From positions 27,652,001 to 27,716,000 of the forward strand of contig OZ024750.1 of NCBI GenBank assembly GCA_964016885.1: DNA of 64,000 nt. Reading direction: 5' to 3'. This stretch comes from Eledone cirrhosa (Eukaryota). The translations under genes were made by a program, and so were the position numbers. The notes below the pieces were generated by a model. That model saw only the letters and a program-made list of their open reading frames with translations. It was not told where the DNA came from and searched no databases. Each line of letters opens with the position of its first letter. Positions within the stretch are counted from its first letter, which is position 1. Positions 1,831-62,628 of this stretch are shown piece after piece.

Positions 1831-2196
1831 ATTATTATTTCAGAACTGTACAGTTACCGATAGTATCTTTAAAAGTAGAGTGGATTACAATAAGACATGT
1901 AATCTTTGTCTAATGAATTTTATTGTCTGATTAAAAAAAAAATAGAGTGAATGGATTCTGGGAAGAGGTATTTCAGTCTGGAACTAGCTGTTGAAACGTC
2001 AAGAGCTCAGCCGTCGGGGTCCGATTCTTTATAATATAACCATAGTCCAATATCCCAAGTATCGAGTGTAATTTTTTGAAAGTGAATCTATCATATATAT
2101 ATATATATATATATATATATATATACATATATATATATATATATATATATATATATATAATATATAAGATCAAAAGATGGTTAAATGAGTTCCATG

Positions 2197-2267
2197 TATT
2201 TTATTATGCGCATTTCAAAACCAAATATCATCATGCAATAACATTTGTGTTTTCATCAGATAAAATA
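2197..2267 (-). ncRNA. Type I hammerhead ribozyme (PLE-type)
   Basis: Minus strand: tattttat-CTGATGA-[aaacacaaatgttatt/gatgatatttggtttt]-GAAA-tgcgca-TA-ataaaata. 8-bp stem I, palindromic stem III ATGCGCAT. Homolog at 58116. Confidence 0.85.
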
Positions 2268-3937
2268 GGAGGACATGATATGAAGGTTAAAAAACACTTG
2301 TGGATAGTGCAGTTTTAAATCAACATATGAAAAGTAGTTTTAGATTGATGTGTGATATTCTACACATCGAGTACTCACTCTGGTGTAGGTACAGAAAATG
2401 GACGTTACAATCCCTAAATATATAAACATACATATATTTATATACATACACATATATACATATATATATATACACAAATATATATATATATGTGGGGGGG
2501 GGTGTACACACACAAATACACATATGTGTTATTACGTAAGAGCAACTTAGTACTCTATACATAAGAAAAATTAATTGCAAATATACGATGCAACTTCATA
2601 GGAGGCCAGCTATGCCTGTAAAGGTGTGGGCTGCGATTTTGTTTTGTATATTATTACAGAAGAAAATGTATTTCTGTAATGACGAAGGAAAAGGTGAGAC
2701 GGTGCATATGTTTGTGGTTGTGGGAGGTGAGGGATATATCATATTTACTGCATTTCTGAATATGTAGACTACTGAGCTTAAAGGAGTGGATGATTGCATG
2801 GTTCTATTATCTATATGTTTAGACTGCATGTTGCTTTAAATATCAGTATCAACTCTTAAAGTTAACTAGTCTATTGAATATCGCACTAAATCGTGAACTA
2901 AGTACATTAGAACTTATCGATTGACCATGCTTGAAGAACCTTTTCATGTTGAAAGGCAGCATTAAGTTATTTGTAATATAAGGCCGCATTCAAGAAACCG
3001 TAATTATATATTCTTAAAATCTACATTATTTTGTAAAAATCTAATTACTCTGTACTATGTATCTTAAAAAAACAAACAAAAAAAAACGTTACTTTTAATG
3101 ACTTTGATGTGACTGTTTGTTGCAGGAAAGCATTTTGATATTTGGTTGTAACATAGAGGTCTGAAGTTTCAACCGAACCTCTAGATGGGTGTCCACCATT
3201 TGTGATCTCAAAGGTGTCTTGATTTTGGTTAGGTAGGAGAATGTAAATTTGCAGAAATAAGTGGTTTAATTTGAAATAATAAGAGATAGACAAAACCATA
3301 TTAATAAAAACTAAAAATTTGTTGGATATTTTTTATTCTTTCAAAAGCCCACACAGAATGGAAAAGCGGGCTGCATGCGGTTTAAGGCCTGAGAGCAAGC
3401 TGAGCTCTGCCTGAGAGCAAGCCACAAATTAGCTGGTTTAGGTTTTACTTTATTAGAAATTTCTACGGATTTCTTATATTTTAAATATTGGAAATTGTGA
3501 TTCTGTCAAAGAAATATAAAGGTATGGTCAGGTCCGGAATTTCACCTGCTCAAGCCCCAAGCTATATGAAATTGTGAGACTTTCTCTAAATAAAATCGGG
3601 TAAAAAATGTTCAATAAGTATACATTATTATTACTTTTTATATTAATGTTAATGATAAAGAAATATATATATATACACACACACACACACACACACACAC
3701 ACATATATATATATATATATATACACACATATATATGTACAAACATATATATATATATATACATATATACACACACACACATATATATATATATAAATAT
3801 ATACACATAAAGAGAGAGGGACAGAGAGAGAGAGGGAGAGAGAGAGAGAGACAGAGAGAAAAGGAGAGATTTGCGAGGTCGAGTCAATGACCTGTTACAG
3901 CAACCTGTTGATTATGACATTAACAAACTGTATTTAT

Positions 3938-4240
3938 TTATACACACACACACACACACACACACACACACACACACACACACACACACACACACACACA
4001 CACACACACACACACACACACACACACACACCACATATATATATATATATATACCGGGTAACAAATAATAGTTATATGCAGTCCACAATTGTCAGCAATG
4101 AGATTAAAAACCTTTTTTGTATAGCAAACCGTGTCACTCTTCTTTCCTGATTTATTATATATATATATATATATATATATATATATATATATATATATAT
4201 ATATATATATATATATATATATATATATATATATATAATA
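3938..4240. repeat. (CA)n and (TA)n microsatellites
   Basis: Direct inspection. Confidence 0.95.
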
Positions 4241-4304
4241 TATATATATAATACACACACACAAGCACGCATACACGCACACACACACACACATATATAT
4301 ATAT

Positions 4305-4388
4305 ACATAAATTATTAAAAAAATAATGAATAAACAAAGAAACAGTTCCTGAACACTACCGTAAACTTTTGGTAGATTTATCTACATA
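4305..4388. mobile_element. Two oppositely oriented termini of the 48.5-kb hammerhead element family, between TA tracts
   Basis: aataatgaataaacaaagaaacagttcct matches 48575-48603; actaccgtaaacttttggtagatttatctac is the reverse complement of 48426-48457. Confidence 0.7.
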
Positions 4389-4762
4389 TATATATATACA
4401 TATATATATATTGTGTATGGTATGATTTCCTATGAGTCATTGATTCCTTCCAGTCTGCTGTCTGACGTCCCAACTTACTTTTCCTCTTTTCCTCTCATAT
4501 AATCACACCCAGCGCCCACTTTGAGAACCTCTGCTGTTGATATCTCTTCGTCATTACCTGATCTAAATATATTTCATTGTATCCTTCATGTTATTTCAAT
4601 GGTTTGTTTGGCGAAGGATGTAGAATTTGTGTAGGATGTTGTCTATATTTTACTGGTTTAAGACGATTCTTTAAAACATGTGGCCAGACATAAGATGCTT
4701 CATGTATAAAACTTTAGTGCACGAGTATTCTTGTGTGGATTTGTCTCTTTCGGACATGGACG

Positions 4763-5634
4763 TTCTTCTTCTTCTTCTTCTTCTTCTTCTTCTTCTTCTT
4801 CTTCTTCTTCTTCTTCTTCTTCTTCTTCTTCTTCTTCTTTTTCTTCTTCTTCTTCTTTGCCTTCTTCGCCTTTGCCTTCTTCTTTGCCTTTTTCTTCTTC
4901 TTCTTCTTCTTCTTCTTCTTCTTTGCCTTTTTCTTCTTCTTCTTCTTCTTCTTCTTCTTCTTCTTCTTCTTCTTCTTCTTCTTTGCCTTCTTCGCCTTTG
5001 CCTTCTTCGCCTTTGCCTTCTTCGCCTTTGCCTTCTTCTTTGCCTTCTTCTTCTTCTTCTTCTTCTTCTTCTTCTTCTTCTTCTTCTTCTTCTTCTTCTT
5101 TGCCATCTTCTTCTTCTTCTTCTTCTTCTTCTTCTTCTTCTTCTTCTTCTTCTTCTTCTTCTTCTTCTTCTTCTCCTCTTCTTCTTCTTCTTCTTTGCCT
5201 TCTTCGCCTTTGCCTTCTTCTTCTTCTTTGCCATCTTCTTCTTCTTCTTCTCCTCTTCTTCTTCTTCTTCTTCTTCTTCTTCTTCTTCTTTGCCTTCTTC
5301 GCCTTTGCCTTCTTCTTCTTCTTCTTCTTCTTCTTCTTTGCCATCTTCTTCTTCTTCTTCTTCTTCTTCTTCTTCTTCTTCTTCTTCTTCTTCTTTGCCA
5401 TCTTCTTCTTCTTCTTCTTCTTCTTCTTCTTCTTCTTCTTCTTCTTCTTCTCCTCTTCTTCTTCTTCTTTGCCTTCTTCGCCTTTGCCTTCTTCTTCTTC
5501 TTCTTTGCCTTCTTCTTCTTCTTCTTCTTCTTTGCCTCCTTCTTCTTCTTCTTTGCCTTCTTCTTCTTCTTCTTCTTCTTTGCCTTCTTCTTCTTCTTCT
5601 TCTTCTTCTTCTCCTCCTCCTCCTCCTCCTCCTC
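4763..5634. repeat. Compound (CTT)n/(GAA)n polypyrimidine tract with recurring tgcc/cgcc interruptions
   Basis: About 870 bp of CTT units with a repeated ttgccttcttcgcctttgcc module; ends in (CCT)n. Confidence 0.97.
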
Positions 5635-60969: not shown

Positions 60970-61447
60970 TGTGCTGCCTGTAGTTGTGGTATGACAGCAC
61001 TAGTAGTAGTCGTGATAAGCTGTGATGTAAAGCACATGGAAGTGTTTGAAAATTGAGCGGGAAACGACAAGTGGAAAAAAAAAGCACATGGCCTTGACAT
61101 GATAGTGGGTGGTGTAAAGTGTTTACTACTACTACTACTACTACTATTACTACTACAATTAGTAGTAGTATTTGTAGTAGTATTTGTAGTGTATGTTGAA
61201 GTACTTATTTTTGTGGAATATAAAATACTGAGGAATACTGAGAGGAAATGGTATATATTTTATCTAATAATACTAAGGACATGATTTATGATATAAAATA
61301 CTGTATATTTTATGTGTATATATCTATAAGGATATATATATCTATTCATCTACATATATATATATATATATCTTTCTATCTATCTATCTCCCTCTCTCTC
61401 TCTCTCTATATATATATATATATATATATATATATATATATATATAT

Positions 61448-61600
61448 AACGAAGGAAATGTGGTAAGGAACCAGGTGGACCATAACGCACCAAAGTACTC
61501 AATACTTGAGGTAGTAGAGTGGGTAATAGGAACCAGTAAGACCCAGAATTAGCTGTCGAAACGGCTTGAGCTCAGCTGTCGGGGTCTTACTGGTTCCTAT
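61448..61600. mobile_element. Family E1 element with inverted terminus
   Basis: Matches 15692-15903 with an internal deletion; TA flanks. Confidence 0.85.
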
Positions 61601-61741
61601 ATATATATATATATATATATATATATTTCTATCTATCTATTATCTTTCTCTGTCTCTCTCTCTCTCACACTTTATCTATATATATATATAAAGAAAATTA
61701 TCTATCTATCTAAAAAAAAATTATATATATATATATATATA

Positions 61742-61947
61742 TAATGGAAAAATTTGAACAGGAACAAAACAGAGAGGCAGTACAACGAATGTTTATTAAT
61801 TTCACGCTCTGGAGAGTGGGGTGTTGGCGGGGAACGACGTTTCGGGCATCAGCCCTTCCTCAGGTGAGAAGTGTGTGGGAACAGAGTTCAAAGGGTGTGT
61901 AGGGGAGTGGTGGAGAGACATATAGCGAAAGGAAACGGTGCGAATGA
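61742..61947 (-). mobile_element. PLE-like insert with hammerhead core motif
   Basis: ac-CTGAGGA-agggc-tgat-gccc-GAAACGTC-gt, then AATAAA; TA flanks. Confidence 0.65.
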
Positions 61948-62080
61948 TATATATATATATATATATATATATATAGAGAGAGAGAGAGAGAACACTGGAG
62001 GGTAATATCCGTAGTGGTAGAGCACTCAGTCCATGGGACGAGTTAGGTAGAAGTGGTAACACAACAGTTAGTTCACCATA

Positions 62081-62120
62081 CCGAGAACAATTGTTTCACC
62101 TTAGCGGATCTTCAGCTCGG
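62081..62120 (-). ncRNA. Minimal 40-nt type I hammerhead ribozyme
   Basis: ccgag-CTGAAGA-t-cc-gctaa-gg-t-GAAA-caattg-TT-ctcgg; palindromic stem III ACAATTGT. Confidence 0.85.
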
Positions 62121-62548
62121 ACAGATCATGATTATACGGAATAGGAAGGTTCTTCCACTTCTCCCTCTCCTTCTCTCTCTTTCTCTCTCTCTCTCTCTCT
62201 CTCTCTCTCTCTATATATATATATATATATATATATATATATATATATATATATATATATATATATATATTATGGAATACTGTTGGCTTCTTGCTACAAT
62301 GCTTTCTATACCTTTCATTTATATATATATATATATATATATATATATATATATATATTATATATATATATATTATATATATATATATATATTATATATA
62401 TATATATTATATATTATATATATATATATATACTATATATATATATATATATATATATTATATATATATATATATACTATATATATATATATATATATTA
62501 TATATATATATATATATATATATATATATATATATATATATATATATA

Positions 62549-62628
62549 TAACGAAGGAAATGTGGTAAGGAACCAGGTGGACCATAACGCACCAAAGTAC
62601 TCAATACTTAGGGTAGTAGAGTGGGTAA
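62549..62628 (-). mobile_element. Family E1 tail fragment
   Basis: Nearly identical to 15692-15772; TA flanks. Confidence 0.85.

Follow-up and report, generated by a model that had tools for sequence, protein, structure and literature searches.

Why should a family of inserts carry one half of a ribozyme, copy after copy, with the other half missing? The question is raised by a 64,000-nucleotide stretch of the Eledone cirrhosa genome (assembly GCA_964016885.1, contig OZ024750.1, positions 27,652,001 to 27,716,000; hereafter the window), in which a first-pass annotation had described 12 inserts of a family called E1, each flanked by TA tracts and each carrying only the 3' half of a hammerhead ribozyme. 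All 12 inserts lie where they had been placed, and they comprise 17 arms (Table 1). The hammerhead half is present in 11 of them, the insert at 62549 consisting only of sequence 3' of the hammerhead, and a TA tract adjoins the outer end of most copies, though not directly that of the inserts at 1976, 22110, and 24945. The 5-bp stem III, its palindromic loop, and the GUC site were confirmed, as were two fixed outer ends, here named A and B, and their opposite orientation: each of the five two-armed window inserts has one A-ended and one B-ended arm, placed head to head. At least two diverged subfamilies are represented in the window. The pattern is, as had been proposed, that of a Penelope-like element (PLE), in which a pseudo-long terminal repeat (pLTR) and a tail are accompanied by a partial inverted copy, here with the 3' half of a type I hammerhead. 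We argue below that the stubs probably (at a rough probability of 0.7) stop at the 5' end of a capped RNA that would begin inside stem II of the hammerhead, where the reverse transcriptase (RT) would run off its template.

The family is large enough for its ends to be counted. A 35-mer from its core has 19,285 exact matches in the 3.0-Gb genome and none for the reversed control, and 1.064 Mb of unselected sequence from three contigs yielded 90 inserts with 139 arms, in a search that arms shorter than ~30 nt escape. These figures suggest some 10^5 inserts in the genome, a rough total, density differing between contigs. Traces recovered in runs X5 and X6 are 99–100% like the E1 family or its subfamilies only. 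Outer ends in the unselected sample divide into 65 at A, 61 at B, and 13 unclassed, and 115 of the 139 arms have a TA tract there. Element positions are numbered from a natural full-length copy, L064, with position 1 at L064:4600; its landmarks are core nucleotide U3 at 207, the proposed transcription start at A250, the predicted ribozyme cut at 290/291, end A at 310, and end B at 390.

The inner ends of the arms converge on one place. In the same sample, 55 of the 60 A-primed and 36 of the 39 B-primed arms that reach the 25-nt bin 241–265 end within it, leaving only five A arms and three B arms that start 5' of 241, whereas each of the three preceding bins loses 7–21% of B arms (Fisher p 2e-21). 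The A arms stop after ~60 nt and the B arms after ~140 nt; because arms of such unequal length stop alike, the edge is specific to position rather than to length, and their shared stop rules out simple length-dependent truncation. Contigs from an independent run have a 15–25-fold step in depth at the same edge, depth not being copy number. At nucleotide resolution the edge spans 246–256, with peaks at 246–247 and 250–251, on TCATTTAGTC. It resembles a 3' splice site, and a splice or trans-splice acceptor was rejected, as the arms retain the AG and have neither an upstream exon nor a leader in common.

That the breakpoints would be non-random and inside the hammerhead, with template switching there, had been anticipated by the first-pass annotation; the cause that it offered, stalling of RT, is probably not the right one, and the switching is likely a result of run-off. 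Under stalling, the template would extend upstream and RT, on meeting the hammerhead, folded or bound by protein, would halt close to the apex of stem II before it switches template or is joined. In the predicted fold, the edge does lie immediately 3' of the apical loop of stem II, and a small second cluster of ends at 290–292 falls at the base of stem III. Stalls can, moreover, trigger template jumps. We nevertheless regard stalling as unlikely, in that subfamily B has its edge on the same motif though its loop II is unrelated, and little is lost while RT traverses stem I, stem III, or the 3' strand of stem II. Arrays of more than four units with full hammerheads have also been inserted, an outcome to be expected only rarely under a 92% stop, should they have been copied in one pass, and a stall predicts no G before A250, a point taken up below.

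The sequence at the edge is TYAGTY, in which AGT is invariant in 22 of 22 aligned copies, loop II being otherwise unrelated between subfamilies. This motif fits all seven positions of YYANWYY and five to six of the six positions of TCAKTY, two initiator consensuses listed in PMC4581360. A promoter internal to the pLTR, with an initiator and downstream elements, is described for Drosophila virilis Penelope in PMC2377424. In that species the hammerhead begins at the 3' end of an intron, downstream of the start (PMC4209133), whereas the start proposed for E1 would split the hammerhead. As a separate observation, counting from A250 places CGAAA of the hammerhead at +18 to +22, where it matches four of five positions of the Bridge part I consensus, and places a match to five of six positions of the downstream promoter element (DPE) range set at +28 to +33; chance is possible in both cases. 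The Bridge/DPE-like stretch occupies element positions 267–282 (29381–29396 in the window). At L311:1014-1674 there are three head-to-tail mini-units (247–503 twice, then 247–393), each beginning from the proposed start region.

The base that precedes the edge carries further information. According to PMC11702581, an extra G marks full-length capped templates for L1; this cap-derived G is known there for the L1 protein, which is not that of a PLE, and E1 junctions have a similar extra G. Among the first 100 of 3,496 matches in a search for purines, the base before A250 is G in 87 and A in 13, as against 54 G and 46 A before the control A255 (first 100 of 990 matches; p 4e-7), and long copies have T or C at the base before A250. 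Of 16 G junctions from the top of that list, nine have a partner arm that cannot have supplied the G. At four more loci, picked for a G in both arms, both arms end at A250 plus G. In pooled loci that were not picked for G, this base precedes A250 in 11 of 26 cases and A246 in 4 of 4; six positions nearby have it in 6 of 50 (p 0.004 against A250). The first-pass annotation had read ATGAG at 17937 and TGAG at 45018 as remnants of CUGAUGAG. They are not, given the T or C of the long copies; the apparent remainder arises because an extra G precedes A250.

A 5' end at 246–255 might alternatively be made by a nuclease, or by small-RNA slicing, in loop II, with the G stemming from untemplated C addition by RT. 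Such cutting would account no less well for the sharpness of the edge and for the template jumps, and G is frequent at the control site too. It seems to us improbable, considering that the edge starts at A's within a conserved pyrimidine-purine initiator-like motif, that G is more frequent before A250 and A246 than at the positions around them, and that a pLTR-internal promoter is known in Penelope.

The behavior of RT at the edge was followed in 30 loci that read past end B, representing 26 distinct insertions. Seven of eight clear template jumps in this set depart from 247–253 and land at 452–1208; they occur on both A- and B-primed arms, and at L255 the copy runs to the edge, jumps, and reaches the edge again. 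Where two arms are present, they combine an A end with a B end in 37 of 38 classifiable inserts, six with an unclassed end having been dropped. Their junctions are blunt, overlap by a few bases, or hold short inserts, some of which are copied from the arms. Palindromes of PLEs have been read as products of self-priming (PMC3846280), in which one complementary DNA (cDNA) would snap back on stem II and copy itself into the inverted arm. The arms of one insert do share subfamily-diagnostic bases, 15 of 17 scored pairs differing at no more than 2 of 23 positions, and many junctions are near-perfect palindromes. Yet in 7 of the 37 A+B inserts the A arm extends at least 25 nt further 5' than the B arm that should have been its template, and because it does so, fold-back of a single cDNA needs a later deletion; A-primed arms also have template jumps of their own (L258, L259, and L263). 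Fold-back is accordingly given very little credence here.

If the stubs do end where a capped RNA begins, their formation can be envisaged as follows. A250, mainly, and A246 would serve as RNA polymerase II starts on the initiator-like motif within stem II, and the resulting capped RNA would carry RT start sites A and B near its 5' end. The RT-endonuclease of the element would cut (TA)n and prime at both DNA ends, one at each site, and synthesis from A or B would run off the cap after ~60 or ~140 nt, respectively, the extra G being the copied cap. The 3' ends of both cDNAs would then be fused in head-to-head orientation by host end-joining, either at microhomology or with short inserts between them. 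The stubs would lack the 5' half of the hammerhead because their RNA would begin inside stem II. Long copies would come only from priming at a downstream copy of A or B in read-through RNA, and in no other RNA would the complete hammerhead be able to fold.

Several points weigh against this reading. The start site and the cap are deduced from DNA copies; initiator motifs are both degenerate and frequent in DNA rich in AT, with consensus sequences that come from fly and mammal. The inner ends spread over ~15 nt, and A250 lies near the apex of the stem II hairpin, a possible place for a stall. As to the extra base, the partner arm could supply the G in 7 of the 16 G junctions, and C is as frequent as G before A250 in the pooled set (12 of 26, the remaining three being A). 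Junctions of subfamily B mostly have C (14 C, 4 G, and 1 A at loci L078-L107), though many junction C's can be derived from the partner arm or from a TCAGT subfamily. The control A255 is itself preceded by G in 54%, and pairs with G in both arms number five per 100 listed matches at the control vs seven at A250. Part of the G signal may therefore come from joining or terminal transferase activity, or A255 may be a minor start.

The 5' half that the stubs lack is found in the long copies, in a form other than that expected. The first-pass annotation had predicted CUGAUGAG directly upstream of the stubs, with a C-rich stem I partner and a CUGANGA core in longer copies. Genome searches for the predicted arrangement, variously written with CUGAUGAG, CUGANGAG, or CTGANGAG directly upstream, gave only three matches, all at inversion junctions. 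The C-rich partner does exist, and the core of the long copies is UUGANAA instead of CUGANGA, ~45 nt further 5', within ACCCC-UUGANAA-G. ACCCC pairs with the GGGGU that follows GUC to form stem I, and a 6–9 bp stem II closes ~33 nt. This 5' half has 4,506 genome matches; among the 100 listed, A8 is present in all, U3 in 82, and C3 in 18. G8 cores have 47 matches (39 with U3 and 8 with C3). The U3-A8 core recurs in the older subfamily B, where loop II is unrelated. Each of the four possible states at core positions 3 and 8 (U-A, C/A, U-G, and C-G) is on record at L037, L049, L050, and L239-L253, partly in apparent small subfamilies, and together they constitute a natural series for cleavage assays.

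The three stems around the core, with G10.1-C11.1 and A15.1-U16.1, are predicted to be those of a type I hammerhead. Across 22 hand-picked related copies, whose kinship inflates covariation scores, 91% of 462 stem cells are paired vs 28–51% in slid controls, two-sided changes between subfamilies occur at three pairs of stem II, and the covariation score is reached by 0 of 500 shuffles. Minimum-energy folding gave the three-way junction in two of five copies, with weak z-scores. Rfam returned no hammerhead among the 150 listed of 422 window matches and no match at the gathering score on three full copies. Replacement of C3-G8 by U3-A8 has been published for type I hammerheads of Cercyon PLEs of Schistosoma mansoni. 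According to that study, the swap lies in the pLTR there as well, with ~1,300 matches, and, as in E1, one base is left unpaired on the 5' side of stem II (PMC4209133). The metazoan motifs of that study are minimal, with little or no helix III, unlike the 5-bp stem III and palindromic loop found here; the long stem II, likely with the transcription start, is a feature of E1 that sets it apart from those motifs (PMC4209133).

Whether the ribozyme acts can be approached from the copies that start at its predicted 3' product. Arms that start at 291 after an A have 140 matches, and 21 of 30 inspected are junctions, compared with 54 matches and 12 of 30 at the control position 288; both arms end at 291 in 7 of 30 and at 288 in 0 of 30. 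A start at 291 also occurs in the arm at 39433 of the window and in one template jump (L282). This small excess fits occasional cleavage and is only a hint, a stall at the base of stem III lying within one base. The success of the subfamily with a C3/A8 mismatch suggests that cleavage is not essential. This agrees with PAc, the Poseidon PLE of Anolis carolinensis, whose insertion does not need hammerhead cleavage according to PMC11167929.

The element behind the stubs can be read from the long copies, which run on into a 3' untranslated region and an open reading frame (ORF). L064 has an intact frame of 718 amino acids from the first Met. Units measure 3,531 and 3,542–3,543 bp, with a long 3' untranslated part, and form arrays of more than four at two loci, where they are 99.8–100% identical within the array and their frames are open. 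End B lies 80 nt past end A, within the leader of the next unit, and the stretch between the two ends is the PLE tail; 3' of either end, at a distance of a few bases, a bulged hairpin can form (-4.4 and -8.0 kcal/mol). Its protein carries RWR, DKT, YRDD, a CxCX5C linker, a C-terminal (V)IY...YIG, CxxC, and CxH. An alignment of 25 rows, made with its homologs, conserves FD, YRDD, and (V)IY...YIG, with RWK or RWR in 25 rows, DKT in 24 (P0001 has RWR and DKT), and the CxCX5C linker, CxxC, and CxH in 25 each, the last two around a conserved E and N; one endonuclease His is invariant and the second CCHH candidate is not. Profile scans of the protein against Pfam and PDB gave no RT or GIY-YIG match, and some of the clusters among its Atlas neighbours (0.96–0.99) carry GIY-YIG or RVT_1.

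A single ORF with RT as well as a GIY-YIG endonuclease (EN) at the C terminus, together with RW(R/K), DKT, CxCX5C, CxxC, and CxH, marks the Hydra clade in PMC8557442, and by these motifs the inserts are almost certainly stubs of a Hydra-clade PLE. Besides ORF layout and motifs, E1 has in common with that clade the (TA)n target, the pLTR, the tail, and the inverted 5'-truncated copy, whereas Hydra-clade families are described there as generally shorter than 3 kb, as compared with the 3.53-kb unit here. The Hydra hammerheads given in File S2 of Craig et al. (2021; PMC8557442) are all CUGANGA with loop II of no more than 10 nt, in contrast to the UUGANAA core and the ~33 nt closed by stem II in E1; canonical CUGANGA is a descriptive rather than a diagnostic trait of the published families. 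Hydra-1_Obim, compared by eye, is a different family from the E1 parent. Three other affiliations were rejected. The Naiad clade is ruled out by the domain order, RT then EN. The broken RT of Tx1/L1 type at L003 lies upstream of the element with unrelated DNA between, and it was not seen in other copies. A non-LTR retrozyme consists of tandem non-coding units, each with a complete hammerhead (10.64898/2026.07.22.740005), whereas E1 stubs are single or head to head and lack the 5' half, and the tandem units that have complete hammerheads are coding.

A parallel in copying is PAc, for which two internal RT start sites are published that define the tail, as in E1 (PMC11167929). Both elements have an AT-rich target, and in PAc both strands are cut. 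The tail is ~80 nt in E1 vs 30–40 nt in PAc, and in E1 both ends match the target by a few bases (TAT), unlike PAc. The parts of the PAc account that were covered mention no copies with an end at a transcription start within the ribozyme (PMC11167929).

Table 1. Arms of E1 inserts in the window, with element positions numbered from L064.
Coordinates	Strand	Description
1972..2021	+	Old single arm; begins near the proposed start and extends through the GUC site; ~80% identical to L064
to ~2067		Diverged tail remnant of the 1972..2021 arm
12719..12760	-	Single arm, positions 269-310; outer end A in (TA)n
15692..15835	-	B-primed (tail) arm, positions 247-390; 100% identical to L064, a young full-length copy
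15844..15907	+	A-primed partner of 15692..15835, positions 247-310; arms 8 nt apart
17939..18007	+	Arm of subfamily B that begins at the proposed +1 (A at 17940), preceded by an extra G at 17939; outer end A
22110..22238	-	Arm of subfamily B with inner end ~252; does not reach end B on the outer side
24945..25044	+	Single arm, positions 251-352; outer end neither A nor B
27315..27366	-	Single arm flanked on either side by (TA)n; positions 260-310, end A
29295..29357	-	A-primed arm, positions 248-310
29359..29496	+	B-primed partner of 29295..29357, positions 247-390
39370..39431	-	Subfamily B arm, A-primed, positions 251-310
39433..39534	+	B-primed partner of 39370..39431; begins with the base immediately 3' of the predicted hammerhead cut
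44956..45017	-	A-primed arm, positions 250-310, plus extra G (C at 45017 on the + strand)
45020..45081	+	B-primed partner, positions 329-390 only; 5' side shorter than that of 44956..45017
61446..61547	-	B-primed arm, inner end ~289-293
61543..61600	+	A-primed partner of 61446..61547, positions 253-310; microhomology join
62548..62630	-	Tail-only arm, positions 308-390; without hammerhead sequence

Further observations concern the arrays and the surroundings of the inserts. The arrays of more than four full 3.5-kb units are those at L304-L305 and L306-L307 (G000:C1:437,197,000-437,216,999), the latter bounded by an inverted B arm on one side and by end A on the opposite side. Such arrays are compatible with copying of a circular monomer RNA, for which the hammerhead would have to cut and ligation to follow, with copying of a long read-through RNA, or with expansion at a later time. 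In L305 (~6,700 to end), where the array has its 5' end, a 55-bp piece of the ORF forms a tandem satellite of ~60 copies or more. Also abundant in the window is another repeat, ~200 bp long and headed by tRNA-like sequence (1432-1652, 7012-7432, 11786-12147, 13721-13918, 18944-19630, 33532-34356, and others), in which ARAGORN called no tRNA. It is probably a short interspersed nuclear element (SINE), part of it presumably resembling the SINE Meta domain. Beside the insert at 22110, the segment 22312-23100 (-) looks by eye like the C-terminal zinc-finger region of a Tx1/L1-type long interspersed nuclear element. Microsatellites at 6451-6755 are arranged as a mirror, (CT)n-(TA)n-(AG)n; this segment scores below gathering thresholds against several microRNA models, at artefact level.

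The class of the element, the U3-A8 swap, and the two start sites already have precedents. In the literature covered, which had most subscription journals and bioRxiv supplements outside it, no transcription start inside a PLE hammerhead and no cap G in PLE copies was found. A slightly better than even chance is given to the fuller proposition that a core promoter is built into the ribozyme: stem II would carry the initiator, RNA from the element's own start could not cut its 5' end while read-through RNA could, and twin-primed run-off would make the stubs. How tandem and inverted ends of PLEs form, and what the hammerhead does, are named as open by both Craig et al. (2021; PMC8557442) and Frangieh et al. 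(2024; PMC11167929).

To these questions the E1 family offers a specific answer, covering the points at which transcription and copying begin and the frequency with which the RNA was cut, in a very large natural sample, and it shows that a very abundant hammerhead-like motif can escape both Rfam and CUGANGA descriptors. If the answer is true, the RT start sites lie 60 and 140 nt from the cap. If it is general, the "partial inverted pLTR" of PLEs would be a strong-stop-like product, and the genome would hold, in tens of thousands of copies, a fossil map of the 5' ends of capped and, more rarely, ribozyme-cut RNAs.

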